Shown here: positions 6,255 to 26,379 of the stretch, in pieces
How positions within the stretch are numbered: position 1 is the stretch's first letter
Layout: each line of letters starts with the position of its first letter
DNA from: Flagellatimonas centrodinii
Lineage (GTDB): Bacteria; Pseudomonadota; Gammaproteobacteria; Nevskiales; Nevskiaceae
Direction: 5' to 3'
Length of the DNA stretch: 32,000 nt
Assembly (NCBI RefSeq): GCF_016918765.2
Contig: NZ_CP092105.1
Coordinates: 79,160-111,159 of the forward strand
Notes under the pieces: model-generated
The model's input: only the letters and a program-made list of their open reading frames with translations
Databases searched by the model: none
Told to the model about the DNA's origin: nothing
Position numbers and translations under genes: made by a program

Positions 6255-8344
6255 ACGCGCTCGACGCCGCCCCGGCAAAGGGGTCGGCGGCGGAAGAGAT
6301 TGCAACAGCGAATGACCGGCCACTCTTGCTGCCATGCGGATTCGACGACCTCACGGTGGCCCCCCTCCGTCGCTTCCGGGCGAGGGACCTGCAGCCATTC
6401 ATCGGACAGGACGTTGTAGTCGAGGCGGCGGTATTCCGGGTAGTACCTGACCGCCGATCGCTGGGGATCTTGGGCGTCCTCATTGGACAAACCGGAGCCG
6501 GCCTCATGATTCTGGGGGGCTACGACTCTGCGCCGGTGCTTCGATATCTACTCTCGCCCAAGCGCGCCGCCTTTTTACTTTATGGCCGGATTCGCAAGGA
6601 AAGCGGCCTGTTGTGCATGCGTGATGTTGAGCCGATTTCGCGTGAATGGTGCGGGCAAATCAGACCTCGATATCCGTTGGATGGTCGGGTGGTTGCGGCG
6701 CAAGTTCGCCGTATTGCCGATATCGAGAAGGACAGCTATCTGGCCGACGCCCGCGCCCAGGCGATTCGACGGGCCAAGGTACGATCCAATCTCGACTCCA
6801 TCGTCCAGTCTGCGGCGGCCACGGTGCTGGAGGAATCATTAAAGCATCCGAAGAGCGTAGAAGCCGCTCTGGGTGTGCTGACGCGGATTGAGGCGCGGAC
6901 GAAGCTCCGGGGCATCCTGCGGGTGCTTCACAAGCCTGACTCGATGACCAGTGCGTTGGCTGCCTTGCACAAGATCCAGGTGGTCGCCGCAGTGTGCATG
7001 CTGCAGGAGGGTGTTGAGGCGAACTTCACCGCGTACCAGAAGCGACGGAGGATCAAACGCGACGCGCCAGCTGTCGCTCTCGAAGTGCTCGCCGGCGGCA
7101 AGGCCGCTGCTCTGGCCCGGCTCTGCATGTACTACCCCTATACGCTGACGGACGAGCAACAAACCGCAATATGGGAATGCCTCAACGAACTCAACGGTGA
7201 GCGTTTCGTGCGCTGGCTCATATCCGGCGATGTGGGGACCGGAAAAACCGACACCTTCGGCGCAATCGCCCGAGCTATGGCTTTGTCGGGGCATCGGGTC
7301 GCGGTGCTGTGCCCCACAGCGAATCTAGTTCGGCAGACCTTCGCGAAGCTAGCAAGCTGGAATCCCGATGTCGGTATGAGCTTCACCGCGGGCCGCGAGG
7401 TTGAGGGCGATCCCGAGACAGCTTTGATCCAGGTGGGGACGCTGGCACTGCGCCGATCGGCGCGACGCTTCGACCTGGTGGTGGTCGACGAGCAGCAGAG
7501 ATTTGCCCGAATGCAGCGCGAAGAGTTGATGTCGTCGGCCGGCCACCTGATTGAAGCTACAGCAACCTGCATTCCCCGCACCCAGGGCCTGGCTGATCTG
7601 GGCGCAATCAAAGTCAGCCGGCTGCGGAAATGCCACGTCGAGAAGGCCATCACCACACGCATCTTCGAGCACAACGAGCGGCGCGCGCTGTTCGCTGGGG
7701 TGCGGGAAAGCGTCGAGGCTGGGCGGAAAGTGCTGGTGTTCTATCCGGCGATTCATGGCAGCGGCGCCGCACACGTGGCCACCTTGATGGAGTACGAGCA
7801 GGCCTGGAGAAAGCTGTTCGGTGATCGCCTCGGCGTTGTACACGGGGCCCTCAAGCCCACGGACGCCCAGGCGGTGATCGACCAACTGCGGTCGAACAAG
7901 GTCGACGTAGTCCTGACCACCACACTGCTGGAAATGGGTCTCGATGTGCCAGATATCCAGCGAGTTGTGGTCGTCCAGGCCCAGCGATTCGGACTGACGA
8001 CGCTCCATCAGATCCGAGGGAGGGTTGCCCGTGCCGGCGGTGAGGGCTATTGCGATCTCTACATGCTCGGTGACTACTCGGCGAAGTCACGGAGGCGGAT
8101 GGAAGTCATGACCCGCACCACGGATGGCTTCGTGATAGCTCGGATGGACGCGCAGCTGCGCGGTACCGGCGACGTCACAGAGCACGGACACCGGCAGAAA
8201 GGATCACTACCTGGCAATCCGTTCGTCAATCTGCCGGTCCCCCCGAAGGCCATGGACGAGGCCGCACGCGCGCTCTACAAGGTTTGGTTCGATCCAGCTG
8301 CAGAGGTGGTGGCCGGGGCGAGCGGCCAACCCGATGGCGGGTAG
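6251..8344 (+). CDS. RecG-like SF2 DNA helicase
   Basis: GTGA overlap with the upstream gene. Walker A GDVGTGKTD, motif II VVVDEQQRF, ATCIPRT (RecG ATPIPRT), TTTLLEMGLDVPD, and FGLTTLHQIRGRVARAG (RecG FGLAQLHQLRGRVGRG). The N-terminal ~170 aa parallels the RecG wedge/OB region. Confidence 0.8.
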   Translation: MNALDAAPAKGSAAEEIATANDRPLLLPCGFDDLTVAPLRRFRARDLQPFIGQDVVVEAAVFRVVPDRRSLGILGVLIGQTGAGLMILGGYDSAPVLRYLLSPKRAAFLLYGRIRKESGLLCMRDVEPISREWCGQIRPRYPLDGRVVAAQVRRIADIEKDSYLADARAQAIRRAKVRSNLDSIVQSAAATVLEESLKHPKSVEAALGVLTRIEARTKLRGILRVLHKPDSMTSALAALHKIQVVAAVCMLQEGVEANFTAYQKRRRIKRDAPAVALEVLAGGKAAALARLCMYYPYTLTDEQQTAIWECLNELNGERFVRWLISGDVGTGKTDTFGAIARAMALSGHRVAVLCPTANLVRQTFAKLASWNPDVGMSFTAGREVEGDPETALIQVGTLALRRSARRFDLVVVDEQQRFARMQREELMSSAGHLIEATATCIPRTQGLADLGAIKVSRLRKCHVEKAITTRIFEHNERRALFAGVRESVEAGRKVLVFYPAIHGSGAAHVATLMEYEQAWRKLFGDRLGVVHGALKPTDAQAVIDQLRSNKVDVVLTTTLLEMGLDVPDIQRVVVVQAQRFGLTTLHQIRGRVARAGGEGYCDLYMLGDYSAKSRRRMEVMTRTTDGFVIARMDAQLRGTGDVTEHGHRQKGSLPGNPFVNLPVPPKAMDEAARALYKVWFDPAAEVVAGASGQPDGG

Positions 8345-9371: not shown

Positions 9372-10298
9372 TCATCCCTCATTTAGAGGCGCGTCGGTGC
9401 CAGAATCGATTGATTTGGAGGCCTGACGTTCCCGGTGTTGATAGAGGTACCTGTAGACGTGCAAGCGCGGCAGGAGCGGCTCGAGCTCGACCTTGCGATC
9501 GCTGCGGCGGCTGGTGGGAACATCGACCAGATCCGATAGCATGTTCAGGCCGGGCCACCGGCCGGCCGGGATGAATAGGGGCAGTGCCCCGGGTATCGGT
9601 GGGAGCGGCTCGCCATCGATCCAAACAAGGAGCTCCACATGGGGAGCCACCGGCTTGCGAATAACCAGCACCTCGGCATCATGCAGTCCTTCCAGGGCCG
9701 CGAGTTCGCGCTCGATCGTTTCGTCGGACAGCGTGCCACGCTGTCGCCGCTCAGCGTTTTGGATTCGCCTGCGGACATCGGCCACCGTCAGCCGTTTGCC
9801 GGTGGTTGCGCCGCGGTTCCAGAAGAAGCTGACACGCTCCGGCGGCTGCTGAAGCATATGGAGCTGGCGGTAGACCTGCAGCCGCTGCACGTGGGCGAAT
9901 GGACGCATTTTGCGAACCTGAGTGAAGGTGTACTCGTCGATCGCCCTCCCCCGCTCGGCGAACACCTTCTTTGCCCGATTGACGTCCTCCAGCGCTTCGA
10001 GCGTCTGCGGTGAGCATGCCAGCAGACCTGGAGCACGTACGCTGGCCACCGGCGCCTGGCCAGGCCGGTAGTTCATGAGGGACAGTGCGGCGGCCGCCCA
10101 GTTTCGAGCGCCCTCGCCTTCTAGGCTGTTCACCGCCATGGTCCGTTGTGCCGCCGGCGAATCACGCTCGGCCAGGACCGCGGCGTATGCCGGAAGGCGA
10201 CCGTCAACCCGACGGACGCAATCGGACAGCTCCGACAAGGCGCCGCGGACCCGGTCATAGGCGTCCAGCAGCCCCACAAAGACTTCAGGCTCAACCAT
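9372..10298 (-). CDS. Tus-like (DNA replication terminus site-binding protein family) candidate
   Basis: Preferred start is ATG 10298 (MVEPEVF...) with AGAGGTGGGT upstream, not 10340. At 308 aa it is the same size as E. coli Tus. Collinear matches to my recollection of Tus, ours listed first: VRAPGLLAC vs VRLPGVLCY; LQVYRQLHML vs LNAYRTLTVL; VSFFWNRG vs LRFGWANKH; VIRKPVAPHVELLVW vs KIKRPVKVQPIARVW; LLPRLHVY vs IIPRLHLY near the C-terminus. Confidence 0.55.
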   Translation of the reverse strand: MVEPEVFVGLLDAYDRVRGALSELSDCVRRVDGRLPAYAAVLAERDSPAAQRTMAVNSLEGEGARNWAAAALSLMNYRPGQAPVASVRAPGLLACSPQTLEALEDVNRAKKVFAERGRAIDEYTFTQVRKMRPFAHVQRLQVYRQLHMLQQPPERVSFFWNRGATTGKRLTVADVRRRIQNAERRQRGTLSDETIERELAALEGLHDAEVLVIRKPVAPHVELLVWIDGEPLPPIPGALPLFIPAGRWPGLNMLSDLVDVPTSRRSDRKVELEPLLPRLHVYRYLYQHRERQASKSIDSGTDAPLNEG

Positions 10299-10308
10299 AC
10301 CCACCTCT

Positions 10309-10327
10309 TTTATAAACCATCCCCCTA
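10309..10327. repeat. Left arm of a perfect 19-bp inverted repeat (TTTATAAACCATCCCCCTA)
   Basis: Exact reverse complement of 10464-10482. Ends 10 nt upstream of the Tus-like start codon and abuts its SD. Confidence 0.9.
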
Positions 10328-10463
10328 GTACACCAGCCACCCCACTCCTGCCACCCCCACCCGCTATCCCCCTGACCCACCGACATTTCTTTTTCTCTTT
10401 TCCCCCTCTTCTTCTCCCCTCTTAAAGCTTGGGCGGCCGGGGCTGGGGCTGGGCGCCCTTGTT

Positions 10464-10482
10464 TAGGGGGATGGTTTATAAA
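10464..10482. repeat. Right arm of a perfect 19-bp inverted repeat (TAGGGGGATGGTTTATAAA)
   Basis: Exact reverse complement of 10309-10327. Lies 26 nt upstream of the ATG at 10509. Contains a TATAAA -10-like hexamer. Confidence 0.9.
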
Positions 10483-10508
10483 CGGGGGTGCGCACGGTCT
10501 AAGGGATC

Positions 10509-12668
10509 ATGACCCGACGCCGCAACAGAACAACCATCGACGGCCGCGTCTTGCGCGCCTGGCGAAGTCCGACAGGCTCGGCGGTGGCCCAACTGCAGGT
10601 CGAGAGCGAGATCGTGCCGGTGCTGGCCAAGAACATGGCGCTGGTGAGCGACGAGGTCGTCTGTCTGGAGGGCAAATGGACCTCGCACGTCGGTTCGGGC
10701 CGCCTGTTCCTGGCGGCAAAGATCCGGACGCGCCCTCCCGAGAGCCTGGCCGCTTCGGCATCGATGCTGGCGGAGGCCTTGGAAGTCGATATCGGCGACA
10801 TCAACCGGCTCATCAGCCGCTTCGGTGACGACCTGCTGAGCGTGCTGGACGGCGGCCATGCGAAACGGCTCACGGATGCCGGATTCGACGCCGGCATGGC
10901 GCGCACCATGATGACGAACTGGGCTTCGCATCGGTCGCACCAGGCCTTGGCACCGCTGCTGGGGAAGCTCGGCCTCGACGAAGAGGCGCTGGAAGCCCTC
11001 CGCAATGTGTTCGGCAGCTCCGTCGATCTCGATCGACAGCTCCGCGAGCAGCCCTACAACGTGATTCTGCATCTGCCGACCGCACAGTGGGATCGCGTCG
11101 AACGGGTCGCTCGTGAGTTGGGGATAGCCGAGGATGCACCCCAGCGGCTGGATGCTGCTGTCATCGCCGAGCTGCGAGCTCGAGGGTTCAGCGGGCACAC
11201 CTACATGACCCTCGATTGGCTGAGGGAGGCCGCCCTGGCCAGGTTGGGGCTGAGCGAACGAAAGACCGCGAGACGCGCGCTCGAGGCAAGAATCGACACA
11301 CTGCGGGCCGAGCGCCTGCTGACGATTGATGCCGACCGTGCATTCCTGCCACAGGCTTTCGAGGAAGCGGCCGCTCTGGCTGAAGGGGTGCTGTCGCACA
11401 GTCGGGCCTTGGCAGACATCGACCCGCCAGACGATCGAGAAGCCCTGGAACACGCGCTATCGAAGATGAGCGTGCCGGAGGGAGTTGATCCGTGGGAGCT
11501 TGGCAGGTTCGCACTGGGCGGAGCGCTCTCCGTGATCTGCGTGCAGGGGCTTGAGGCAGCGCTAGATGTGGCGACGGGCCTCGATCAGGTGTGCGACGTT
11601 CTGAAGATCAAGATGGGGCTCATCTGCCCAACCCTCTGGGCTGAAACCGCATTGAACGAACGTGGCCTGGTGAGTCGGCCGAAAACGCTGCACGAGATGT
11701 TGGGGACTCCGCCGCGGTACGACAAGATCAGCGGTCTGCAGGTTGAGTTGATCGTCATTCTGGGCGCGGACCAGCTTTCATCCGACCAGCTGCACGGGCT
11801 GTTTCGTGCGCGGCCCGACGGCGTTGGGCTGGTTCTGATCGGGGACGACTCGCTGGACACGGGATTCATTCTCGGCCGACCGTTCCGGGATATCGCCAGT
11901 GCCGGCGACGAGGTCGGCGACGCTATTCGCATGATCCGGCATCCGACTGGTGGAGCGCTGGTCACCAGGGCTCGACGCCTAATGGACGCCCCGGAGATGA
12001 TCGGCCGCTTGCAAGGGCGCTTTCAGTTGCCGCTGTCAGCACATGAATGTCGGACTGAAGACGTAGACGGCGCGGTCTACAGCATCGTGGAGCGCGTGCT
12101 TCCAAGGTTGAACGCTCTCGATGAAAGCTACGCGGTCTGTTACCCGCGGAGGGCGGGACTCCCTGATCCCACGGTCCTCGCTGACCGACTGGAGCAGCTT
12201 GAGAGCACTGAAGCAGCGATCGCCTTCGGGCGACGATCTTGGCGGTCCGGGGCAAAGGTCTACTTCACCGAGCCACTGCCAGGGGAGATCACAATCCCGG
12301 CCTTCACCCGACTCGAGCTTCGTCTGATTGATGCCAGTCCGGGACCCTTCCCGGCACGCACCGTCGATGGCCGGGAACTGGCGATTACAGCCGCACAATT
12401 GGAGCGCGCATTTCCTGCGCGGGTGGCACCGGTTCACGCGGTGCTGTGGCAACCGGTTGATACGCTCATCCTGATGCTGCCTCCCGGCCGGCTCCATCAC
12501 GCACGTCGCATCCTCTATTCCATGGCAGCCAGCGCGCGCCGGCGCCTGATCCTGGTTGGAGCTACTGAGGCGTTCACTGCCGCCTTGTCGGAAGACCATA
12601 GCGAGCCTTCAAGTCTGCTAAAGATGACGTTGGTAGGCCGCGCCCATCACGAGAGAGCATCCACATGA
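10509..12668 (+). CDS. RecD2/TraA-architecture SF1 helicase-like protein with degenerate ATPase motifs
   Basis: N-terminal OB/SH3-like segment (VVCLEGKWTSHVGSGRLFLAAKI), an HhH-like region, QPYNVI (RecD2 nPYxL), CPTLWAE...TLHEMLG (APTGRAA...TIHRLL) and a C-terminal RRRLILVG. However, Walker A is replaced by VQGLEAALD and Walker B DE by ILGADQ. Confidence 0.65.
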   Translation: MTRRRNRTTIDGRVLRAWRSPTGSAVAQLQVESEIVPVLAKNMALVSDEVVCLEGKWTSHVGSGRLFLAAKIRTRPPESLAASASMLAEALEVDIGDINRLISRFGDDLLSVLDGGHAKRLTDAGFDAGMARTMMTNWASHRSHQALAPLLGKLGLDEEALEALRNVFGSSVDLDRQLREQPYNVILHLPTAQWDRVERVARELGIAEDAPQRLDAAVIAELRARGFSGHTYMTLDWLREAALARLGLSERKTARRALEARIDTLRAERLLTIDADRAFLPQAFEEAAALAEGVLSHSRALADIDPPDDREALEHALSKMSVPEGVDPWELGRFALGGALSVICVQGLEAALDVATGLDQVCDVLKIKMGLICPTLWAETALNERGLVSRPKTLHEMLGTPPRYDKISGLQVELIVILGADQLSSDQLHGLFRARPDGVGLVLIGDDSLDTGFILGRPFRDIASAGDEVGDAIRMIRHPTGGALVTRARRLMDAPEMIGRLQGRFQLPLSAHECRTEDVDGAVYSIVERVLPRLNALDESYAVCYPRRAGLPDPTVLADRLEQLESTEAAIAFGRRSWRSGAKVYFTEPLPGEITIPAFTRLELRLIDASPGPFPARTVDGRELAITAAQLERAFPARVAPVHAVLWQPVDTLILMLPPGRLHHARRILYSMAASARRRLILVGATEAFTAALSEDHSEPSSLLKMTLVGRAHHERAST

Positions 12669-14506
12669 GTGTGCGCGAGCGCTACAGCTCTGAGGCCCGG
12701 GTGCGCGTACGCGCACACGATGAAATGCGGCGACTAAAGGCCACGCCGTTCACCCCCCTACTCGCGGCCATGGCGCCGTTCTTGCCCGCCCCGGCGTTCG
12801 GAGCGATCGGCATCGGCGCCGGCGTCTTTGCAGCCAACAGGCTGCAGGCGCTGAGGACACTTAGGAAGCCTCCAGAACTCGCAAAGCAACATCGGTTCGC
12901 TGGCCGCGAAGAGACGGGCATAGCCGATCGGATCTATCTCGGACACAGTATTGATTTCCTGACCTACAAATCAGGACTCGAGGCGCTGAGGGAAAGACAG
13001 GGCCGGCTTACCGCCGAAGAGCGGACCGACTATGACAACAGTGTCATCGAGAAGATGTTTCCCTCCTTCACCGACGACAAGAACATGGCAGCGCACATGG
13101 CGCTGCTAGGCAGCCCTGGGCAGGGGAAGACCGAATTTCTGCTGTCGCTCTGCTATCAGCAAGCCAAGCGCGGTGGCGGGATGATCATCTTCGACCCCAA
13201 GAGCGACGACAAGGTGTTCGCACGTATCGCCGAGATCATGCGTTTGACGAACCGCGAGCACGATCTGCGCTACTTCAACCCGGATCGGCCGAATCAGAGT
13301 CACACCTACAACCCGCTGCTTTTCGGGGATGCCCGTCATGTGGTGAGCACCGGAATGAAGCTCACCAAGACACCAACAGGGGGCGACTCGGACTTCTTCT
13401 ACCGGATGACACGCATCGGCATGCTCGCAGCCGTGGTTTGCCTGAAGGCGCAGCCCGAGTGGACACCGATATCGTTCCGAGATCTGGCCCCGCTGTTTTC
13501 AGATTTGGGTCTGTTCGCCGAACTCTGGCAACGCATCCCGGACGAAAACGTCGATGCGAAGGCATTCGTGTATCAGTTTTTACGTATGTGGCTGACACAA
13601 AACCGGCAAGGTCAGCTCGGGCCCGACTATCAGCAATACCTCAAAGTGCTGGCCGGATTGAAAGGCATGGTGATGGATTTCTGTCACGGCCCCTATATCC
13701 GACTGCTGAACTCCTACAACCCGGACATCGACCTGAAAGACGTGATCGAGAACGGGCGGGTGTTGTACGTGGGCTTCTCCGCCCTTTCTGACAAGCAAGG
13801 CAGCAATGTGTTCGGGCGGCTGCTAATGGCAGATGCGGCACGCGCACTCGGGGAGATCTACACCCAGCGAGTCCGGCCGGCCGTGTCATGCATGATTTTC
13901 ATGGACGAATACGGCTCCTCGGCAGACGAAGCCGACCTCGAGCTGTTTCAGATGGGTAGAGACGCCAATGTCCCGATTGTGGCAGCCGTACAGGGCCGGG
14001 GCTTCCTCGACTCGGTGAATCAGCACTTCGTCAGCAAATTACTCGACGCAACCGGCTCCCAACTTTTCCTGAGGGTATCAAGCGAGGAGAGCCGCAGTAC
14101 TGCAGCCGCGCTGGCCGGAACGATCATTGCCCGCTTTGGACAGGGGACCGACAGCCGGAACTTCGGCAGTAGTCACAAGAACTTCGAGACCGGGATGCTC
14201 AATCAAGAGAGCCACGGCCGCAGTGTCAGCGTCGGGTCCAGGGAGATGAGAGAGGACATGCTTCAGCCCGAGGATTTCGCATTGGCGAAGGGCGATGCAA
14301 TCCTGTTTTCCTCCTCAGGGGTGCATCGGATGCGCCTGCCACTGCTCACGTTCAAGACCGCGATCCCGCCTAGCGAGAAGGTATGGCTTCCACGCTTTGC
14401 GCGTCCGGAGGTCAAGGGGCTCGACTTGATGCGCCGCTCGATGGAGCACGACACGCACTTCATACACGCCTTCAGCAATGGGGCACTCGAAGACGAGGAC
14501 AGGTGA
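12665..14506 (+). CDS. Type IV coupling protein (TraD/VirD4 family)
   Basis: ATGA overlap with the upstream gene. N-terminal hydrophobic segments, Walker A LLGSPGQGKTE, and Walker B-like CMIFMDEYGS. Confidence 0.8.
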   Translation: MSVRERYSSEARVRVRAHDEMRRLKATPFTPLLAAMAPFLPAPAFGAIGIGAGVFAANRLQALRTLRKPPELAKQHRFAGREETGIADRIYLGHSIDFLTYKSGLEALRERQGRLTAEERTDYDNSVIEKMFPSFTDDKNMAAHMALLGSPGQGKTEFLLSLCYQQAKRGGGMIIFDPKSDDKVFARIAEIMRLTNREHDLRYFNPDRPNQSHTYNPLLFGDARHVVSTGMKLTKTPTGGDSDFFYRMTRIGMLAAVVCLKAQPEWTPISFRDLAPLFSDLGLFAELWQRIPDENVDAKAFVYQFLRMWLTQNRQGQLGPDYQQYLKVLAGLKGMVMDFCHGPYIRLLNSYNPDIDLKDVIENGRVLYVGFSALSDKQGSNVFGRLLMADAARALGEIYTQRVRPAVSCMIFMDEYGSSADEADLELFQMGRDANVPIVAAVQGRGFLDSVNQHFVSKLLDATGSQLFLRVSSEESRSTAAALAGTIIARFGQGTDSRNFGSSHKNFETGMLNQESHGRSVSVGSREMREDMLQPEDFALAKGDAILFSSSGVHRMRLPLLTFKTAIPPSEKVWLPRFARPEVKGLDLMRRSMEHDTHFIHAFSNGALEDEDR

Positions 14507-15117: not shown

Positions 15118-15486
15118 AAACATGTGACCGCCTTGATACTGCCCCTGAGTCTTCTGGTAAGCGCTGCCAATGCCGCCCCGCCCGGCACAGCATATGCCGG
15201 GCCGGGGATACTCGATTTGCGCCGCCCGTCGGTTCAACAGTCCCTTGAACGAACAGCCCGGGCATCGCAGGCGCTGGATGCCGCCATGAAGGAGATCAGG
15301 GCAGCACAGTCGGCATACGCTTTCGCCGGGTTCGACTACGAACGGCTACTGAAGGACCTCTCGACAGCCCGCGAGGCCCTGGACCCGATGCTTCTGATCG
15401 AGGAGCGTCGACTGCGCTACCAAACGCTAGTACCCACTGCAACCTATATCCGGCAGTCGCCGGCACCATTGACCACACCGGAGTAA
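15118..15486 (+). CDS. Secreted small protein, possibly RAQPRD-family-like ICE protein
   Basis: Signal peptide MKHVTALILPLSLLVSAANA|AP. The segment YAFAGFDYERLLKDLSTAREAL recalls the conserved YxFDYxRLxxDLxxxRxGI block of ICE RAQPRD proteins (from memory). The RAQPRD motif itself is absent. Confidence 0.5.
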   Translation, partial: KHVTALILPLSLLVSAANAAPPGTAYAGPGILDLRRPSVQQSLERTARASQALDAAMKEIRAAQSAYAFAGFDYERLLKDLSTAREALDPMLLIEERRLRYQTLVPTATYIRQSPAPLTTPE

Positions 15487-15490
15487 GACC

Positions 15491-15880
15491 ATGATGCGCT
15501 TTGCCAAACCACGCCTGCAGCTGACGAAGGATGCGTCGGACTTTCTGACCTTCCTCACCCTGAGTCTGCTCCCGGTTCTCTGTGCGTTGATGCCCGAGAT
15601 CGCATTCGCCCAGGACGCGTTCGAGGGCGGGGGCTTTATGGGAGATACCGCGCGGTTCATCGAAGACATCGGTGGAATGTGGACCGTATTCAGCTACGTG
15701 TGCATTTTCGTGGCTCTCGTGCTTCTCGCACTGGGGATGTTCATGCCGATGGCCTCGTTTCTGAAGTGGGGGGCGCTGGGAGCATTGGTTGTCGCCGCAT
15801 TTGGCGAGTCATTCGTCACCTGGGCCTTTGATGTGGGCGGGAACAACAACGAGCTCTTGATCGAGCGACGGCAGGGATAA
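15491..15880 (+). CDS. T4SS pilin-like protein (TrbC/VirB2-like)
   Basis: GGAG RBS. Long leader ending AFA|QD, then two hydrophobic helices (VFSYVCIFVALVLLALGMF / WGALGALVVAAFG). Size and topology are typical of conjugative pilins. Confidence 0.6.
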   Translation: MMRFAKPRLQLTKDASDFLTFLTLSLLPVLCALMPEIAFAQDAFEGGGFMGDTARFIEDIGGMWTVFSYVCIFVALVLLALGMFMPMASFLKWGALGALVVAAFGESFVTWAFDVGGNNNELLIERRQG

Positions 15881-15891
15881 TGTTGAAGGAT

Positions 15892-15941: not shown

Positions 15942-15965
15942 CCCTTTCGGCGATGAGCACCTGAG

Positions 15966-16316: not shown

Positions 16317-16320
16317 GGGA

Positions 16321-16932
16321 ATGAACGAGGCAGGGGGTAAGGGTGAAGGGTGGACTCTTTGGGCCAGTCAGGAGCTGGCCATCGCCCGATTGCAGCGATC
16401 GAGAGTGTATGTGGGCGCCTTCGGGGTGGTTGGCGTATTGATCCTTGGGATCTATATCACGCACCTCCATGGCAGAGTCGACTATCTGTCGACCAACCAG
16501 CTCATGTACTGCGTCGCTGACGGTGAAGGAATGTACCGTTCAACGCGCGACATTCCCGAAGCAACGGTCCTGAATTACGGGCAGCGGTTCCTGGCGAACT
16601 TCAAGCAATACGACTCCTCGACCGTAGATGTGAACTTCGCCCGGGCACGGGAAATGATGCGGCCGGACCTCGCGCTCAGCTACAAGCCGGCAATGGATCA
16701 GGAGGCGGCACGTATCCGCCGGCTGTCACTCTCGCAATGGTTCACCCCGTTGAATGAAACCCTCACGGAAACAGAGGGCGGTTTCATATTTACGGTACAG
16801 GGGCGGATCGGCGGCTACACCGGCTCCACTCCATTAAAGCCTGCGGAGACGACCGTCCGGATCGAAATGCAACGCGTCGTGCCCAGTGAGGGGCGTCCGG
16901 AGGGGCTGCTGGTCGTCAAAAGCAGCGGGTAA
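16321..16932 (+). CDS. Bitopic transfer protein (TraE/VirB8-like position)
   Basis: GAGGG RBS. A single N-terminal TM (VYVGAFGVVGVLILGIYI) followed by a ~150-aa periplasmic domain. Confidence 0.5.
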   Translation: MNEAGGKGEGWTLWASQELAIARLQRSRVYVGAFGVVGVLILGIYITHLHGRVDYLSTNQLMYCVADGEGMYRSTRDIPEATVLNYGQRFLANFKQYDSSTVDVNFARAREMMRPDLALSYKPAMDQEAARIRRLSLSQWFTPLNETLTETEGGFIFTVQGRIGGYTGSTPLKPAETTVRIEMQRVVPSEGRPEGLLVVKSSG

Positions 16933-16974
16933 GTGGCGCGTCTAAGGGAATTGAGTCCCTGACACAGAATTCTG

Positions 16975-17769
16975 ATGCTTCGCTACTTCCCAGTTCTCGC
17001 TGCATTGATACTCAGCTCGGTTGCGGGCGCCGCTGAACCTTGTGACCGGGTTCAACGCAGCGCGACTTGGTCGGGAGCCCCGCTCGACATCGCAGTTTCC
17101 CCGGAGGCCTACACGGAAGTCGTCTTCCCAGAGCCGCTGGCCGGGATACTTCCGGAGCGAGAGGATGGACTCCGCTACTTCGAGAATCCCTTCCCTGATC
17201 GATTGTTCTTTACTGTCGATGACCCGGAATACCATGCCATAGCCATCGTCCAGGGAAAAACCGGGCAGTCTTACCATCTCCGACTCGATGCCCGCAGCGG
17301 GTGCCCCGATTCGACCGTGAAGGTTCTGGCGAGGGGGACATCCGCAGTTTCGGCGGTGCCCGACGAACTGCAGCGGTCAACTCGGAGAAAGTTGATCGAG
17401 TACATGATCCTCGGCGAGACCCCTCAGGGATACGCGCGAAAGCAGATCACGGGTGATCTGTCAGACCGCGAGATTATCCGGCAGGGTTCTGTGGGGATCT
17501 ATCTCACCGAGACCTATAGGGGCGTGAACTACACCGGTTACGTGCTCCTGGCCGTGAACGAAGGGCGCACCCCCTACCGCGTGGCACTTGAGAGCATCGA
17601 TTTCGCCGCGCGTGGGTTGACTGATGCGGTAGGACTCGTGCGCGAGATTACGATGCAACCCTACGACTTCCGGCTCGGGCCAGCACCGGAGTACGCAGCT
17701 GATGCTACCGATCCGAGCCACCAGGGCCTGATCTACCTCGTTACGGACAACCATCGCCGTGACAGATAA
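16975..17769 (+). CDS. Secreted transfer protein (TraK/VirB9-like position)
   Basis: Signal peptide MLRYFPVLAALILSSVAGAA|EP. Called on size and on its position just upstream of the VirB10-like gene. Confidence 0.5.
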   Translation: MLRYFPVLAALILSSVAGAAEPCDRVQRSATWSGAPLDIAVSPEAYTEVVFPEPLAGILPEREDGLRYFENPFPDRLFFTVDDPEYHAIAIVQGKTGQSYHLRLDARSGCPDSTVKVLARGTSAVSAVPDELQRSTRRKLIEYMILGETPQGYARKQITGDLSDREIIRQGSVGIYLTETYRGVNYTGYVLLAVNEGRTPYRVALESIDFAARGLTDAVGLVREITMQPYDFRLGPAPEYAADATDPSHQGLIYLVTDNHRRDR

Positions 17770-19180
17770 TCCGAACGTCATCAAAGCGCGGGCCGCAAAG
17801 CAGAATTCGGCCGCGCAGACCAATACCTCACGCTCTAAGGTTTTCCTGATCGGAGGCGTGTGCCTTGCGGCTGCCTTCCTGTTCATGAAAATGGGCGGAT
17901 CTGACAGGGCGCCGATTCCGCAAGCTGGGCAGGCTGCTCCAACACCGCCACCTGTCGAGTTCGGAACAATGTCGAGCGAAGCTGCCGAGGCGCAAAGGCA
18001 GCTCGAACTGGCTGAACTAAAGCGGCGCCTGGCAGAGCAGGATCGAGTCTTGCAGACGCAGCGAAGCGAGTTCTCTCAGCAGCTCGAGGCAGTTGAAACG
18101 AAGCTCACTCGCGAAGTGCAGGGACTTCTCGAGGCGCTGGAGAGAAACTCGGAGTCCCGTGTTCGTAGTCAGCGTACCGGCGATCCGATGCCGAGCGGCG
18201 TGAGCGACCTGCCGCTACCACCGGGCGGCGGAGAGTTCGTGGATCCGCAGCTAACAGCGCAATCTCGGCAGAGCCCCTATCGAAGACTGGGTGGAGGCTC
18301 AGGCGGCTCAGGTGCATCGCTACCGTTTACAGCCGGGGCAGGCACCGCGGCGACTGGTGGAATGACAGATCCTCTGGCCAGCGGCGCGTTCGACGAGAAT
18401 GCGTCATTCGCAAGCCAGGCACGTCCCGAAGCAGCAGGCCCCGGAACACCATCTCCGGCGCGAACCACGGGGCGAACGATCAGAGACGGCTATACCCGAA
18501 TCCCCGCCTATTCCTTTGCCACGTTGCGAACCTTGCATGGCGTGCCGTGTCCTGTCGCAACTGGAATCTCCGGATCAATAGGCGGCCTTGGCACCACCAG
18601 TGCGCCAGTCGTGCTCCCACTGGTGTCGAGTTTCAAGGGGCCGCAGGGGCTTGAGTTTCAGGTTCCCGCAGTTCACTTGCTCGGCTTGTGCGAAGGGGTC
18701 GATAGAAAGCGGCCGACCGCCATGGTCAAGGTAGAACAGCTGTCCATCATTGATGAGGCTGGAACAGCGCATGTCATCGAGGTCAACGGCTATGTCGTCG
18801 ACGCACGCGACAACGATCTGGGAGTTCGAGGCGTCAAGGAGAGCGTCAAGGGCACGCAAATATCGCTCGCGCTGTTGGCAGCAGGCGTTGGCGCTGCAGG
18901 CAGCGGAATCCAGCAAGGGGCCACCGACACAATTGAGACTGCCGGCGGGAACATTCGGGAGGTGGTACGCGGCGGGCGCCTGGGGAACCTGATTGCCGGA
19001 TCGACCATCGGCGCTGGCGCGAATGAGCTAGTCCGCTACTTCCGGGAGCGCGGCGCAACCCTTTTCGACGTTATCTCGGTCGACGCAGGTACCGAACTGA
19101 GATTGATCATTACTGAGCCAATCGATTTGCCGATTGGTCACTCTGTTGTGGAGAGCATTGATGGCCGTCCGTTGCTGTAG
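17759..19180 (+). CDS. TraB/VirB10-like T4SS core protein
   Basis: N-terminal TM (VFLIGGVCLAAAFLF), a coiled coil (EAQRQLELAELKRRLAEQDRVLQ), a Pro/Gly-rich linker and a beta-rich C-terminal domain. The GTG start at 17759 is uncertain. Confidence 0.6.
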   Translation: MTDNPNVIKARAAKQNSAAQTNTSRSKVFLIGGVCLAAAFLFMKMGGSDRAPIPQAGQAAPTPPPVEFGTMSSEAAEAQRQLELAELKRRLAEQDRVLQTQRSEFSQQLEAVETKLTREVQGLLEALERNSESRVRSQRTGDPMPSGVSDLPLPPGGGEFVDPQLTAQSRQSPYRRLGGGSGGSGASLPFTAGAGTAATGGMTDPLASGAFDENASFASQARPEAAGPGTPSPARTTGRTIRDGYTRIPAYSFATLRTLHGVPCPVATGISGSIGGLGTTSAPVVLPLVSSFKGPQGLEFQVPAVHLLGLCEGVDRKRPTAMVKVEQLSIIDEAGTAHVIEVNGYVVDARDNDLGVRGVKESVKGTQISLALLAAGVGAAGSGIQQGATDTIETAGGNIREVVRGGRLGNLIAGSTIGAGANELVRYFRERGATLFDVISVDAGTELRLIITEPIDLPIGHSVVESIDGRPLL

Positions 19181-19478
19181 TGCCGCCTTCCTGATTCTTG
19201 CATTGGCTGGCTGCGCCAGCGATCGCGCCTTCCGGCCGATGGAAGAGGTCTATGACGAAGTGCATCGCCAGGGCCAGCGAGACGCTGTAGCCGTCTTGAG
19301 GGAAAGCCTTCGTGAGCGAATCGTGTACGGCGCGTCGGACCCATATGTGCCTCTGCGAGTGCCGGAAGAGATCGCACCGATCTGGATTCCACCTTACGTC
19401 GACTCTCGAACTGGACGCCGCGTCGACGGCCACTGGGAGCACACCGTCATCAGGAGATCCGAATGGTTCACTCGGTGA
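19161..19478 (+). CDS. Small lipoprotein (TraV-like position)
   Basis: Preferred ATG is 19161, with GGAGAG 6 nt upstream. Lipobox LALAGC|AS. Confidence 0.55.
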   Translation: MAVRCCSAAFLILALAGCASDRAFRPMEEVYDEVHRQGQRDAVAVLRESLRERIVYGASDPYVPLRVPEEIAPIWIPPYVDSRTGRRVDGHWEHTVIRRSEWFTR

Positions 19479-19954
19479 AGGGCACTGCTATATCCATTCT
19501 CGCCGCGGCGGGCCTGGTATCGGGCTGCGCGACCCGAGGCGACAGCGGATTTGCAGACGACTACAGGAAAGCACAGATCAGGCAGACAGCCATGCGGAGT
19601 ATCGTGGCGCGGCCTGCGGCTGATGGTGAGTTACGCGAAAAGCCCCTCATTTCTGGTCCATTGAATCCGTCGACAACTGGACCCCACACCGCCCCAATGA
19701 TCCTTCCACCGCCGGTGTCGGCTAGGCTCACGGCGATGATGAAGGTGTCAGAGCTGGTGACCCTGTGGGGAATGAGCATCGGCTACACGCCCGTCATCAC
19801 CTCGAAGGCTGCGGGCGAGGCCATCCTGGGAAGCTTCGCCGAGGTGGACTTTACCGAGGTCGATATGGGGGGATGGATGGCGCGCAATGTGGGCGTGCGC
19901 ATTGATCTGATCCCCGAGGTTCGGATGATCCTCGTGAGTCGCATTCAAGCATGA
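19463..19954 (+). CDS. Lipoprotein of the transfer region
   Basis: AGGAG 6 nt upstream. Lipobox GLVSGC|AT. Confidence 0.55.
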   Translation: MVHSVKGTAISILAAAGLVSGCATRGDSGFADDYRKAQIRQTAMRSIVARPAADGELREKPLISGPLNPSTTGPHTAPMILPPPVSARLTAMMKVSELVTLWGMSIGYTPVITSKAAGEAILGSFAEVDFTEVDMGGWMARNVGVRIDLIPEVRMILVSRIQA

Positions 19955-22731
19955 GGACGTCGACCGCAAGCGAAATGCTGGGCGCGCTCGGCTACACGAA
20001 AGCCGTGCGCCTCGAGGACGCCATCGATATCTATACCTTCGTGGACAGTGGCGGATACTCGCTCACCGTTGACGGGCGAATGATGGCCATCTGGCGTCTT
20101 CCCAGCATTCCTGGTGATGGACTGACTGAGGATCAGCGCACAGGAATAGCCAACGAGCTGGCTCGCTTGATCGATCTCTACCCGGAGGGGTCTTCTGGGC
20201 AGTACGTGCGCTTCTCTCATCGCGACGTGCGGGACAAACTGACGCGATATCGTGAGGGAATCCGCCAAGAGGGCTTCCTCCCCGTCATCGGGAAGTCTGT
20301 CCTGGCAGTGCAGGAGAGGGCGGCACGCTTCGGCTTCTTCGCAAATGCCAAGCAGGGCGCCGAGCTTCTGGACCGGGTCAAGAAGATGGAGCTGGAAGGG
20401 GATGACGGCTCCGAGGTCGGCACCCCTGACCCACTTCCAAATCCGGGGATCACACGCGGCACAGTGGCCATGGTCGTAGAGCACTACCTGGTTTTTGCAA
20501 TGGACTCGTCACTTCGGGAGCGGCGGGGATTCAGCCAGGCATCTCAGGCCCTTCGCAGTCTTTTTGGGCTCTCTGACGGGGAGGCATTCATCAACCGAAT
20601 GGAGGCCGACGAGCACCGGTTCCTCGAGGCTGTCAGTGAGTTGGAGTTCGGAATGGAGGCGATCGGTCTAGCGGCCGAGCGTCAGAATGCGTCTGGCATC
20701 TGCAAGTTGCTCTACCGGATTCTGAATCCAAGGCGGTGTCTCATCGCTGCACCTCCAGAGCCTACACGCTTTGAAACTCTCGCTGACGCGCTGTCGTTGA
20801 CCGGCGTCCGAACGAGCATCGGATCCGCGGCGACTGGGACCACATTGAAGACCTCGCCCGAGTCATGGTCGTTGGATGGCTACCACCACTACGCAACCTC
20901 AGTCCGGGTAATGCCCGAAGAGACGCGGGCCGCAATGCTGCTCGATCCGATTCAGAAGACGGAGGGTGAAGGCTGGTGCACAGTCAATTGGTGGGTGCCG
21001 GCTCAAGGGCTATATCGAATGAATCTGCGAATCAAGGCGCAGATGCTGTCAAACCAGAAGGAGCTCTCGAAGTATCCGATCATTGCTCCGGACCCAATGA
21101 AGCTCGAGAAGCGCGACCAGGATCTGGCCTTTGTTGGCAACGCCATCAATCCAGAAGAACGGGAGTACCACAAGGTCGTTCGGACCTCTGTTCATATCGT
21201 TGCGCGCGACAGCAACGCCGGACGGGCAAAGCGCCGAGCCAAGCAGCTGGAGAAGTTACTCTGGAATAGCGGGTATCTTGAGCAGCTCCGCGGAGACGCG
21301 GTGATCCACCATAGCCTGCCGGGTAACTTCCGTCAGGAAGCCTCTCAGTTCATCGGTCGGGATCTTCCGGTCCTGAGTACGAACCTAGCGGACTTGCTTC
21401 CCATCTACACCGGTTTCAACGGGCTCGATGACGGAAAGCTGATGTTCAACAACAGCGTCGGGGAGCCGATCGGCTACGACCTGTTCACGCGGCACGCCAC
21501 TGCCGGGCACACGCTGATCTCAGGAGGCACCGGCACCGGGAAGTCGTTCCTGGCAAACGGGCTTATCAGTCAGAGCAGGGTGCAGGCCCCGACGAAGACC
21601 TTTGTGATCGACAAGGGTTTCAACTTCGATTCGCACACACGTGCGACCGAGGGGCAACTGATCGTGCTTGTGCCAGAGCCAATGGATGGCTACGAGCCAC
21701 CTTGTCTGAACCCATTTTGGATTGACGACAGTAAAGGACATCGGCAGCCATCAAGCCTTGAACTGTCCTACATGCTGAGCGTGCTCAACGCGATGCTGAA
21801 ATCCGGGACAACCGATGAGTCCGGCAGGACAGAGCCCGTGCGAAAGGAGGAGATGAACATCCTGATGGGTCATCTCACCGGTCTTTTCGCAGCAAGACAA
21901 CCAGGTGGCGAGCTGATCATGACCCACCTGATGAACAGTCTGCGCGCCAATCCCGCTGACTCCATATCAAATGAATTGGCCCGTCGGTTGGTCGACTTCA
22001 GTAGCGAGGGAATGTGGGGACGCCTGTTCGATGGGCCGCTCTCCGTGAACTGGGATGCTGAGATGGTCTGTGTCGAAACCAGCCTGATGGCCGACTCGCC
22101 GGCTATGGATGTGGTGATGCTGATCCTGTTCATGCAGATCGAGTCGTATGTGAAATTCAAGCTCCCGCGTGGAGTTCGCAAGCTACTCTTCATCGACGAG
22201 TCGTGGAAGGTACTGGCCAAGCCGCACCTCGCGAGGATCGTTGGCTCATTTTTCCGCGAGCTTCGCAAGTATCAGGGAGCAGTGGTCTTGCTCAGTCAGG
22301 GCCTTGCCGACTTCCGTGCATTGGTCAACGCCGAAGGCGGCGCAGACGACGGAATCATGATGAACACCCGACACTTCATCATGCTTGGAGCAAGCAAGCA
22401 GGACATGGATGACGCCGAGGCCATGTTTGCAATCACGCCAGAGGACCGTGCCATGTGGGGACGAAGTCGGAGCGCGATTCCTCAGTTCACCGAGTTCTTC
22501 TACCTACTTCGTCACCGGAGCAACATCAACGTGACAGCGTTGATGCGCTATTGCTCTGACCCGGCCACGTACTGGCTGTCCACCACCGAACCTGCAGAGG
22601 TGGACCTGCGCAAGGCCCAGTTCCAGAAGCGTTCGGACGAATCCGCATCGGACGGGACTGCCAACGTCATGGGCGCCGTCATTGCTCAACTTGCTGAGGA
22701 GTATCCCTATGGACTCAAGAGTGGCGGCTAG
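19951..22731 (+). CDS. VirB4/TraC-family conjugative transfer ATPase
   Basis: ATGA overlap with the upstream gene. 926 aa, Walker A ISGGTGTGKSFL, Walker B KLLFIDESWKVL. Confidence 0.85.
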   Translation: MRTSTASEMLGALGYTKAVRLEDAIDIYTFVDSGGYSLTVDGRMMAIWRLPSIPGDGLTEDQRTGIANELARLIDLYPEGSSGQYVRFSHRDVRDKLTRYREGIRQEGFLPVIGKSVLAVQERAARFGFFANAKQGAELLDRVKKMELEGDDGSEVGTPDPLPNPGITRGTVAMVVEHYLVFAMDSSLRERRGFSQASQALRSLFGLSDGEAFINRMEADEHRFLEAVSELEFGMEAIGLAAERQNASGICKLLYRILNPRRCLIAAPPEPTRFETLADALSLTGVRTSIGSAATGTTLKTSPESWSLDGYHHYATSVRVMPEETRAAMLLDPIQKTEGEGWCTVNWWVPAQGLYRMNLRIKAQMLSNQKELSKYPIIAPDPMKLEKRDQDLAFVGNAINPEEREYHKVVRTSVHIVARDSNAGRAKRRAKQLEKLLWNSGYLEQLRGDAVIHHSLPGNFRQEASQFIGRDLPVLSTNLADLLPIYTGFNGLDDGKLMFNNSVGEPIGYDLFTRHATAGHTLISGGTGTGKSFLANGLISQSRVQAPTKTFVIDKGFNFDSHTRATEGQLIVLVPEPMDGYEPPCLNPFWIDDSKGHRQPSSLELSYMLSVLNAMLKSGTTDESGRTEPVRKEEMNILMGHLTGLFAARQPGGELIMTHLMNSLRANPADSISNELARRLVDFSSEGMWGRLFDGPLSVNWDAEMVCVETSLMADSPAMDVVMLILFMQIESYVKFKLPRGVRKLLFIDESWKVLAKPHLARIVGSFFRELRKYQGAVVLLSQGLADFRALVNAEGGADDGIMMNTRHFIMLGASKQDMDDAEAMFAITPEDRAMWGRSRSAIPQFTEFFYLLRHRSNINVTALMRYCSDPATYWLSTTEPAEVDLRKAQFQKRSDESASDGTANVMGAVIAQLAEEYPYGLKSGG

Positions 22732-24494: not shown

Positions 24495-24877
24495 TGAACC
24501 CTGATGCGCTCGTGCAGTGTGCCCAAGAATGCCTGAACCGCGTGGTTCGGCGGCACTTTCGCACGCGTCTTGAGGTTAGGGTCGAGATCGGAGTGCCAAA
24601 GGCGCAGAAGGTGGTCCCGCTGAATGTGTCGCAGCCAACTGATGAACCGCAGCCAATGCGGCGCATGATCTGCAGCATCGAGGGCGACCCGATACGCCGG
24701 GTCGTGCGGCTTCACCCCCAGCTAGCGGTGTCTCGGGTGCCGCGCTACGTACTGGTAAACCTTCTGTACTACACGGTTGAGCCGTTCATCGTGGGCAGCC
24801 ACCCAGATGGGTATGCACCGCGTGATCGAGACCGGGCGAATGCATGGCTGGAGCGGCATGAGTTTCCACCAATCTAG
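24494..24877 (+). CDS. Hypothetical transfer-region protein (127 aa)
   Basis: TGATG overlap with the upstream gene. Same strand as the operon. A competing minus-strand ORF (24416-24715) was judged a shadow ORF. Confidence 0.45.
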   Translation: MNPDALVQCAQECLNRVVRRHFRTRLEVRVEIGVPKAQKVVPLNVSQPTDEPQPMRRMICSIEGDPIRRVVRLHPQLAVSRVPRYVLVNLLYYTVEPFIVGSHPDGYAPRDRDRANAWLERHEFPPI

Positions 24878-25487
24878 ACCGTTGCGGGTGGCTTTTGCCC
24901 TTGCCTCACTCATATGGGTGCAACTGGCATTTGCTCATCCTCTCGTGGCACAGGTCGCAGGGATCTATGGGCTCGACGAGCGGCTGCTACGCGCAGTCCT
25001 GATGACCGAGAGTCGTGGTCATCCGTGGACCCTGAATGTACAAGGTGAGTCCTTCTTCCTTGGCAGTCGCGACGAAGCAGCTGCACTTGTGAAGCACGTG
25101 CAATTAAATCCGTGGCTTGTCCGGTACCGGCCGCGGAGTGGAGGCAAGGCGGTTCGCTGGTTCCTGCCAACGGAACAGGCAGCCAAGCTCCACGCATCCA
25201 CACTACCGGGGGACAGGACGTCTATTCGCCGGGTAAATCCGAGGATGATCGATATCGGCCTGATGCAGATCAATCTCCACTACCACGGAGACAGAATGCC
25301 GAGCATTGAGCGGGCCCTAGATCCGGACTGGAATCTGTCATATGGGGCCTATTATCTGGCGTCTCTCATTCGCCGTCATGGTTCGATCGTCACGGGACTC
25401 GGCTACTACAACGCGAGTGACCCGACCAAGCGAATGATCTATTCGAGATCAGTATTGGCGAACTACGAGCGGCTAGCGCCAGGCTAA
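24858..25487 (+). CDS. Lytic transglycosylase (SLT domain)
   Basis: Preferred ATG is 24858, with a signal peptide (VAFALASLIWVQLAFA|HP). Catalytic-Glu motif LMTESRGHPW, plus IDIGLMQIN, AYYLASL and YYNAS. Confidence 0.75.
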   Translation: MSFHQSRPLRVAFALASLIWVQLAFAHPLVAQVAGIYGLDERLLRAVLMTESRGHPWTLNVQGESFFLGSRDEAAALVKHVQLNPWLVRYRPRSGGKAVRWFLPTEQAAKLHASTLPGDRTSIRRVNPRMIDIGLMQINLHYHGDRMPSIERALDPDWNLSYGAYYLASLIRRHGSIVTGLGYYNASDPTKRMIYSRSVLANYERLAPG

Positions 25488-25521
25488 CGGATTCCGGGCC
25501 GATCGCCCGTCTAAACAGGGC

Positions 25522-26379
25522 ATGAATACGATACGCCCTTCCTCATTCCGCCCAGTCATTGGTCTGGCGTGCCTCGGCGCCGTACTTCTGTGGGTTGGGG
25601 GCGGCATAGCCGCTGATACGCCATTGCCCCGTTCAGCGACGGAGACTGAACATCCGCTGCTGCGATGCGATCGCCTTCACTGGCTCAAGAACTGCGATTC
25701 CCTGAATGAGCAGGTCACCCGACACCCGTCGGCGCCGCTCAGAATGGTGGATCCAAAGGGTCTCGAGTTTCACTTCGCGCCAGGGACCCCGAGCGTAATA
25801 ATTGAGCATGTCCTCAACCCGTCGAAGGCGAGCGCCGAACGAGTGATCGACTACCAGAACGCCGTACTCGAACGAAACCTGCTCGCTGCCAGGTTCGCTC
25901 AGGAGGTGATGATGGAGCGCGGGCACAAGGATCAGTATGCCCTTCACATGGCGATGAATCCGCCGCAGGTGGTTGACCCAGGCATGAGGTCGATCCCACC
26001 CCCGAAGACGCAGCAGGCTGCCCCAGCAGATCGCCGCGCCCGGGTTGGCCGGGTACGGGCATGGCTGTTCTACAGCGCCTCCTGCCCAGCTTGCTCACTG
26101 CAGATAGCCGAGGTGAAGCGCCTACTTCGTCTCTACCCGGAACTCGATATCACGTTGTTGCAGATGGACGATGACCCGGACTTCCTGCGACGGCTTCGCG
26201 ATGTCGAAGGTCTCAAGGCGGGTCCAATTCCGAATGACCAGTTGGCGAGCTATCAGCAGAGGGTTCCGCTGACGCCGACTATCTGGGTAGAAAACAAGCG
26301 CTCGCGGGAAACGTGGCGGCTCGAGGGTGTAACTACCGTCGAATCAATCGAACGCGCGATCTTGGAGGCATCTGAATGA
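25522..26379 (+). CDS. Periplasmic thioredoxin-fold transfer protein (TraF/TrbB-like) with a CPAC motif
   Basis: Signal/anchor VIGLACLGAVLLWVGGGIAA. C-terminal FYSASCPACSLQIAEVKRL is a CxxC thioredoxin-like active site. Confidence 0.55.
   Translation: MNTIRPSSFRPVIGLACLGAVLLWVGGGIAADTPLPRSATETEHPLLRCDRLHWLKNCDSLNEQVTRHPSAPLRMVDPKGLEFHFAPGTPSVIIEHVLNPSKASAERVIDYQNAVLERNLLAARFAQEVMMERGHKDQYALHMAMNPPQVVDPGMRSIPPPKTQQAAPADRRARVGRVRAWLFYSASCPACSLQIAEVKRLLRLYPELDITLLQMDDDPDFLRRLRDVEGLKAGPIPNDQLASYQQRVPLTPTIWVENKRSRETWRLEGVTTVESIERAILEASE

Follow-up and report, generated by a model that had tools for sequence, protein, structure and literature searches.

A conserved free-standing pseudo-RecD2 next to the coupling protein gene marks a conjugation system of large plasmids whose relaxase went unrecognised

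Why would a plasmid keep, directly in front of the gene for the coupling protein of its transfer apparatus, a helicase-like protein that has lost its motor motifs? We addressed this question for a 32,000-nucleotide stretch of Flagellatimonas centrodinii DNA (the window, G000:C2:79160-111159 on contig NZ_CP092105.1, hereafter C2), in which an open reading frame (ORF) at 10509..12668 (+; positions without prefix are those of the window) encodes a 719-residue protein, referred to as pseudo-RecD2, with an OB-like domain, an HhH/helical N-terminal region, domains 1A, 2A and 2B (SH3-like) and no ATPase motifs. As claimed in the initial annotation of the window, this ORF overlaps through the letters ATGA with the gene of a type IV coupling protein (T4CP; 12665..14506, +), which is SXT TraD-like (best profile SXT TraD, E 6e-27, under the curated cut-off) and in which both Walker motifs are intact (A, GSPGQGKT; B, MDEY). 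We find that pseudo-RecD2, conserved and free-standing, is the mark of a conjugation system in which the relaxase went unrecognised, in a lineage of large plasmids comprising C2, elements of genomes G088, G185 and G175, pQBR57, pQBR103 and IncP-2/pBT2436, and that it is probably a non-enzymatic helper in the poorly understood transfer of these plasmids.

Judged from its predicted structure, the 719-residue protein has full-length RecD2 architecture and fold. Foldseek searches with the AlphaFold model (predicted local distance difference test, pLDDT, 87; predicted template modelling score 0.78) ranked RecD2 of Deinococcus radiodurans (DrRecD2, 3gpl/3gp8; E 8.6e-25) at the top, RecD next and TraI (5n8o) tenth. 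Secondary structure assignment by DSSP delimited an OB-like beta-barrel at residues 9-75 (10533..10733, +), in which E49 and G55 are invariant in the dead clade described below, and Pfam placed an HHH_RecD2 region at residues 145-232 (E 1.3e-9; 10941..11204, +), with P182, Y183, R223 and G229 conserved and the glycines of the GxG hairpins lost. The match to the RecD2 family TIGR01448 was confined to residues 26-300 (E 1.8e-25; 89.2 bits, below the curated cut-off of 500 bits), no AAA/helicase-core Pfam family matched the protein, and a PDB search with its single sequence gave no match. A profile built from 24 Walker-less relatives matched D. radiodurans RecD2 at E 3.4e-59, the aligned part spanning profile positions 197-724. 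In tblastn, 48 of 86 records gave alignments that covered 80% or more of pseudo-RecD2, the subjects being plasmid proteins mostly annotated as RecD-like helicase. The initial annotation had described a RecD2/TraA-type helicase with an OB/SH3-like N-terminus; the RecD2 fold, the HhH region and the OB-like N-terminus stand, while the SH3-like part is the 2B domain near residues 570-635. Because no relaxase family matched pseudo-RecD2, whose N-terminus models as OB/HhH, the protein is RecD2-type and not TraA-type.

Motif names and roles were assigned to the positions of pseudo-RecD2 from the literature on superfamily 1 (SF1) helicases, which we take to apply here. The Walker A position, V345-L352 (11541..11564, +), reads VQGLEAAL where intact RecD2s have GGPGTGKT, the Walker B position (11757..11774, +) reads ILGADQ with L418-G419 aligned to the catalytic DE, and at the motif VI position YSMAASA (12516..12536, +) the arginine finger is replaced by S675. 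Both degenerate Walker motifs had been called by the initial annotation, and profile alignment confirmed them in register with intact RecD2s. A misplaced P-loop could be ruled out, as the pattern GxxxxGK[TS] is absent from the entire protein and the other motifs all align in register. In addition, the model predicts no P-loop, because strand 340-346 continues directly and without a loop into helix 348-365 (block pLDDT 94). As far as sequence can show, ATP hydrolysis is excluded.

A search of representative homologues, for which the best 150 matches were listed, returned 23 full-length proteins without Walker A among these 150, the best ten included; five short fragments and two proteins of more than 1100 residues, also without the Walker A pattern, were left out of the assessment. 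In the main FastTree phylogeny, built from 150 sequences of 680-820 residues plus the locus ORFs, all 28 Walker-less sequences formed a single clade without any intact member (support 1.0). In a reduced set of 70 sequences, the 30 Walker-less ones grouped together on the full alignment (support 1.0), and their clade held on the N-terminal 300 residues alone (0.999; IQ-TREE approximate likelihood ratio test 95.5). These N-terminal trees rule out that the clade is an artefact of motif loss, although long-branch attraction may still contribute. Counting the residues of active RecD2 in 26 non-redundant Walker-less sequences (two near-duplicates dropped) revealed that the Q motif, the Walker lysine and the arginine finger are kept in 0/26, and the Walker B aspartate, the Walker B glutamate and the motif III glutamine in 1/26 each, with no substitute motif at the ATP site conserved across the clade. 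The loss of ATPase chemistry, as predicted by the initial annotation, is supported in these alignments at every catalytic position and clade-wide.

The dead clade is under purifying selection. The pseudo-RecD2s of P108 and pQBR57 share 73.5% protein identity, with a proportion of synonymous differences (pS) of 0.80, at which synonymous sites are saturated, and a proportion of nonsynonymous differences (pN) of 0.17; across the ten pairs of five plasmids, pS was 0.72-0.82 and pN 0.17-0.40, and the T4CP was more conserved. Walker-less relatives stay full length (705-771 residues) despite identities of 18-32%. The single clade and purifying selection together rule out decay in a single genome. Pseudo-RecD2 has a single origin, its catalytically dead form having been recruited once and kept in the large-plasmid lineage, and it is rare: a survey of the host's order, covering 187 genomes, yielded the dead form in G000, G088, G175 and G185. 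Word-based searches for homologues and loci recovered few relatives. Descent from an intact RecD2 near a T4CP was considered for a Paraburkholderia plasmid, which has one two genes upstream in divergent orientation, and rejected, support for a sister position being just 0.10.

To what is the protein tied? In all nine other loci inspected, the gene following pseudo-RecD2 is that of the T4CP. Reading frames overlap at the C2 locus and in seven of these nine, by 4 nucleotides (nt) in P108, pQBR57, G185 and G175, by 11 nt in pSMJS2 and by 26 nt in pBT2436 and pPAG5; the two genes are 100 nt apart in pQBR103 and 252 nt apart in G088. While the downstream T4CP is constant, the upstream neighbours vary between lineages. 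A gene of ~160 residues abuts or overlaps pseudo-RecD2 upstream in Pseudomonadaceae plasmids, and a gene for HU lies close to it in Pseudomonas plasmids; the earlier description as first gene of the operon applies to C2 and G088 and fails for the Pseudomonadaceae plasmids. A Pseudomonas orthologue used as query (E<=1e-25) matched 133 plasmid records, 131 of them from Pseudomonas, and MOB-suite typed 109 of the 133 as non-mobilizable and 24 as conjugative. Matches to pseudo-RecD2 and T4CP were adjacent and co-oriented in 41/41 records listed by both plasmid searches, which covers 41 of the 133 records, the remaining 92 not being checkable that way. Four T4CP homologues come from contigs equal in size to those of four pseudo-RecD2s, which suggests that these, too, are co-located.

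Binding of DNA by pseudo-RecD2 appears doubtful from its residues. In the dead clade, the DNA contacts of active RecD2 are kept in 0/26 (motif Ib arginine), 2/26 (Ib histidine) and 3/26 sequences (motif V histidine), the two asparagines of 2B in 0/26, while HhH glycines persist in between 1 and 4 of 26. The median net charge is -11.5, versus -1 in active RecD2, with the largest shift in domain 1A and no acidification of the OB-like domain. The C2 copy retains P374, T375, T393, H395 and H643, which we take to be positions touching single-stranded DNA (ssDNA) in SF1B helicases. Conservation is highest in the N-terminal region (E49, G55, P77, F105-G106, W138, R142, R179, P182, R223 and G229). Excerpts of one report describe this region of RecD/RecD2 as a partner- or ssDNA-binding module (PMC12143592). 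Of the structural or DNA-recognition role at the T4CP that the initial annotation had proposed, involvement in transfer is supported, so far as gene order and substitution patterns can tell, by the fixed position before the T4CP (next gene in 9/9 other loci) and by purifying selection, and recognition of DNA is weakened by the lost contacts and the acidity.

If pseudo-RecD2 serves transfer, which protein nicks the DNA? According to excerpts of published reports, pQBR groups I and IV conjugate, yet MOB-suite matches no relaxase (PMC13391042), two pBT2436-like plasmids were shown to transfer, the excerpt not using the word relaxase (PMC7070040), and transfer of pTTS12 was not reduced when a putative relaxase was deleted (PMC9537497). 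For pPAG5, a 'traI' is mentioned upstream of the cluster of type IV secretion system (T4SS) genes in an excerpt that leaves unclear which gene is meant (PMC8849076); the RefSeq region upstream of this cluster holds pseudo-RecD2. A Pfam scan of 165 C2 ORFs revealed no match to a relaxase family. Likewise, six-frame searches with PF03432, PF08751, PF03389, PF01076, PF13814 and PF02486 gave none on C2, G088, pQBR57, pBT2436 and pQBR103, and PF07514 (TraI_2) gave none on C2, G088, pQBR57, pBT2436 and pSMJS2. The sole matches of the six families lay on chromosome C1, where a MOBF (TrwC) relaxase (G000:C1:2721880-2722701, -) probably belongs to an integrated element. Three other relaxase candidates near parM were considered, of which the first turned out to be a DnaG-like primase and the second a sigma-factor-like protein, whereas the third gained no assignment.

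The backbone common to C2, pQBR57, pSMJS2, G088 and G185 comprises the transfer module, ParM, the DnaG-like primase, TraU and RecA, together with an AddAB-like pair, a cluster of pilus/secretin genes and a protein with an HD domain. The last of these, a MOBH-like protein encoded at G000:C2:45875-47350 (L005:3875-5350, -), was found in 9/9 elements searched and is absent from G014, whose only RecD2 is intact; 154 plasmid records matched it. It has one to three N-terminal hydrophobic segments, and its motifs HHA..H and HD.GK/DK are conserved in 5/5 sequences, the third histidine of a PASExHHH-like motif being replaced. Comparison by hhalign of the HD-protein profile with 11 MOBH TraI_2 domains extended over 228 columns (probability 92.5, E 4.8e-7). 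A model computed from four sequences showed an HD fold (pLDDT 76); its C-terminal part resembled the TraI_2_C structure 2ipq (Z 8.0, root-mean-square deviation 3.1, 108 aligned) and the model resembled 3kq5 (Z 7.5, deviation 16.1 over 234 residues), both Z scores being modest, and Foldseek returned no match for it at E<=0.001. We regard the HD protein as a candidate for a divergent MOBH nickase of pQBR57, pQBR103 and the IncP-2 plasmids. Divergent from its gene, the segment G000:C2:47404-59196 (L005:5404-17196) holds genes for a secretin, a pilus ATPase and prepilin-like proteins (five or six), a cluster shared by C2, pQBR57, pSMJS2 and G185.

Active helicases are encoded on these plasmids as well. 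The AddAB-like helicase-nuclease pair (G000:C2:69154-75371, L006:9154-15371, +), identified by TIGR03623 above its cut-off plus a RecB/AddA-like helicase, is conserved across the plasmid lineage together with RecA. Walker A of the AddA-like helicase (C2:72099-75371) is intact in 5/5 checked, and the AddB-like partner is also present on pBT2436, pQBR103, P108 and G175. An intact RecD2 lies on C2 at 31748-33940 of the contig (+; L002:6749-8941), near recA and ssb, and occurs in G088, G185 and G175, too. None was found on pQBR57, pBT2436 and pSMJS2, which have pseudo-RecD2, and obligate pairing of the two forms is thereby ruled out.

Taken together, we favour a role of pseudo-RecD2 as an adaptor at the T4CP that links a separately encoded nickase and motor, and rate its chances as even. 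The dead RecD2 would belong to the conjugation system of the large-plasmid lineage as a dedicated component without motor function, acting mostly via its conserved N-terminal region and joining the export pump to DNA-processing proteins whose genes lie elsewhere on the plasmid. Its nickase partner would be the membrane-anchored MOBH-like HD protein, and the active motor most plausibly the AddA-like helicase, which may be used in transfer. Separate proteins would then do what TraI of the F plasmid holds in one chain, namely a nickase, a vestigial helicase with a translocation signal and an active helicase. More tentatively, and with the balance tilted against it, transfer might follow a split mode in which a non-travelling, membrane-anchored HD nickase and an unwinding AddAB-like motor act together with the dead RecD2, which either docks the substrate on the T4CP or pilots the strand non-covalently, followed by RecA-type recircularisation in the recipient. 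If true, this mode would account for the lack of a recognised relaxase in the megaplasmid families of pQBR57, pQBR103 and IncP-2.

Several observations weigh against the adaptor and its proposed partners. The 41 records with adjacent genes are largely near-clonal IncP-2 plasmids and therefore stand for fewer than ten independent lineages. Moreover, the whole backbone (T4SS, ParM, primase, RecA, AddAB-like pair and pilus cluster) is inherited together, so that common ancestry explains part of the synteny. No pseudo-RecD2 adjoins seven T4CPs of greater distance (25-29% identity); five such records searched whole contained an intact-motif RecD2 in three cases and no RecD2 in two. Weak homologues of the HD protein also occur on plasmids of this kind, and because of these distant T4CPs and weak HD homologues, neither the T4CP family nor the HD protein need always have a pseudo-RecD2. 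The HD protein itself lacks a match to PF07514 (TraI_2), the top structural match of its model is YhaM (Z 10.8), and Z scores near 8 may reflect a common arrangement. Two genomes, G185 and G175, have pseudo-RecD2 on one contig and the genes for the HD protein and the AddAB-like pair on others.

Among the alternatives, pseudo-RecD2 could be a free-standing counterpart of the TraI vestigial helicase that binds ssDNA non-covalently and is exported with the strand as a pilot protein. The need for a pilot would arise from the membrane anchor of the candidate nickase and from the fact that MOBH enzymes can cleave by hydrolysis; the MOBH TraI of the gonococcal island makes no stable covalent intermediate in the excerpted account (PMC6736028), and the RecD2 N-terminal domains have been proposed, in the excerpts mentioned above, to bind ssDNA (PMC12143592). 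The fold class is that of the TraI vestigial domain, an ssDNA binder without Walker motifs, and the contact positions retained in the C2 copy and the non-acidified OB-like domain would suit this function. Nevertheless, the motif Ib, V, 2B and HhH contacts are mostly lost in the clade and the net charge has dropped, mainly in domain 1A, which makes a pilot rather unlikely; given the loss of many DNA-contact residues and the greater acidity of the clade, an adaptor fits better than a TraI-like ssDNA clamp. We consider it quite unlikely that the protein acts instead in the recipient, delivered by the T4SS or expressed early, as a decoy that binds RecA, SSB or RecBC/AddAB-type partners of host or plasmid and thereby protects incoming DNA or helps to recircularise it. 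According to excerpts of PMC12143592, SsbA and RecA are partners of active RecD2, and RecC is bound by the N-terminal domain of RecD; the N-terminal region is the best conserved and the plasmids encode their own RecA and AddAB-like pair. However, the gene adjoins that of the T4CP and not recA or the AddAB-like genes, and on C2 the RecD2 paralogue located near recA is the intact one.

A part in plasmid housekeeping (replication or fork protection), with a gene order that is simply inherited and no role in transfer, would be in keeping with the Tus-like divergent neighbour on C2 and G088, the nearby HU gene in Pseudomonas plasmids and the co-inheritance of the entire backbone. Yet it would not be expected from upstream neighbours that vary, a downstream T4CP that does not, and overlapping frames at most loci, and we hold such a part to be improbable. 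Finally, pseudo-RecD2 might be the product of a decaying pseudogene, made redundant by the intact RecD2 paralogue on C2, or a helicase with a non-canonical working ATPase site. Decay is at odds with the full length kept under purifying selection and with the presence of the gene on plasmids in which no intact paralogue was found, and a non-canonical site with the lack of any conserved replacement motif; we give these explanations hardly any credence.

Pseudo-RecD2 is encoded within a transfer module on what we conclude is a circular plasmid, because C2, a contig of 146,558 bp, has a 47-nt terminal repeat and encodes two Rep3 initiators, ParA/ParB and ParM. Its GC content is 0.61, versus 0.65 for the chromosome. 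Downstream of the T4CP gene follow TraE-, TraK-, TraB- and TraV-like T4SS genes (16321..19478, +; Pfam matches weak apart from TraV), a TraC/VirB4 ATPase of the F-like T4SS (19951..22731, +; TIGR02746, E 4e-52), and a lytic transglycosylase with a thioredoxin-like TraF-type gene of the same system (24777..26379, +). Upstream and divergent from pseudo-RecD2 lies a Tus/Ter-family-like gene (9372..10340, -), which adjoins it on C2 and G088 and is not adjacent in Pseudomonas plasmids. An inverted pair of 24-nt arms (10304..10327 and 10464..10487) flanks the intergenic region between these two genes; with up to 4 mismatches allowed, its 18-nt core still has just two occurrences on C2, and there is a similar pair in G088, and the arms may be an operator pair, Ter-like sites or the origin of transfer. 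No sigma-70 promoter match was detected in window positions 10200-12800. Further upstream of the transfer module, the window holds genes for a patatin-like phospholipase (2775-4424) and a RecG-like helicase (6251-8344). Beyond the T4SS, a block at G000:C2:111528-118003 (L007:2528-9003) encodes ParM, a basic protein, the sigma-factor-like protein, the DnaG-like primase and a small membrane protein, in a gene order identical in pQBR57, pQBR103 and pBT2436. C2 also carries a gene with a 5-hydroxymethyldeoxyuridine kinase helical domain (L008:5263-6147) and a ThiF/prokaryotic E2/JAB ubiquitin-like set (L003:8320-9297, 15462-16930). Its cumulative GC skew climbs almost monotonically round the plasmid, as expected if replication is one-way or the coding-strand bias strong.

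In Pseudomonas, resistance genes are carried to a major extent by IncP-2/pBT2436-like megaplasmids, while pQBR57 and pQBR103 serve as standard models in plasmid research. Their transfer in the laboratory, as described in excerpts of PMC7070040 and PMC13391042, contrasts with the non-mobilizable typing of 109 of the 133 records that bear pseudo-RecD2. For the DNA-processing step that is missing, our analysis names two conserved genes, that of the dead RecD2 preceding the T4CP and that of the divergent MOBH-like HD protein. Either could serve as a marker to correct mobility typing.

How does pseudo-RecD2 compare with known systems? The SF1B helicase RecD2 (TIGR01448; DrRecD2 3gp8/3gpl/3e1s) is its family of origin, with the same length, domain order and fold, whereas pseudo-RecD2 lacks the ATP-binding and hydrolysis residues and many ssDNA and HhH contacts, is more acidic and is fixed before the T4CP. 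RecC and AddB are dead-helicase subunits, pseudo-enzymes of SF1 fold that serve as scaffolds beside an active motor. The free-standing pseudo-helicase described here joins these known dead SF1 folds, while being SF1B/RecD2-derived and associated with a T4CP instead of a resection nuclease operon. MOBH systems of the SXT/IncC type share with C2 the SXT-TraD-like T4CP, the F-like T4SS and an HD-domain nickase candidate. However, the slot before the T4CP, presumably held by traI in SXT/IncC, is held by pseudo-RecD2 in the C2 lineage, and the HD gene lies ~42 kb away beside the pilus cluster, its product having N-terminal hydrophobic segments, no long middle region and HHA where MOBH has HHH. Excerpted accounts indicate that the gonococcal island MOBH TraI is membrane-associated (PMC6736028) and that Hodor megaplasmids encode a divergent MOBH-like nickase plus a separate helicase (PMC12934698). 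Full-text searches, which mostly did not reach subscription journals, gave no account for these plasmids of either a dead RecD2 preceding the T4CP or a MOBH-like HD gene, although supplementary pQBR/pBT2436 gene tables may name them. Compared with TraA/TraI relaxase-helicases, pseudo-RecD2 has no N-terminal HUH relaxase domain in its chain. By analogy, the closest functional precedent would be the vestigial helicase domain of F/R1 TraI, which, according to excerpts of PMC5422253 and PMC3912908, has a RecD2-like fold without Walker A/B, binds ssDNA, carries a T4SS recruitment signal and is used in conjugation. Unlike this domain, pseudo-RecD2 is free-standing, unfused to an HUH relaxase or an active helicase, and it retains the OB/HhH N-terminal region of RecD2 proper, from which it descends.

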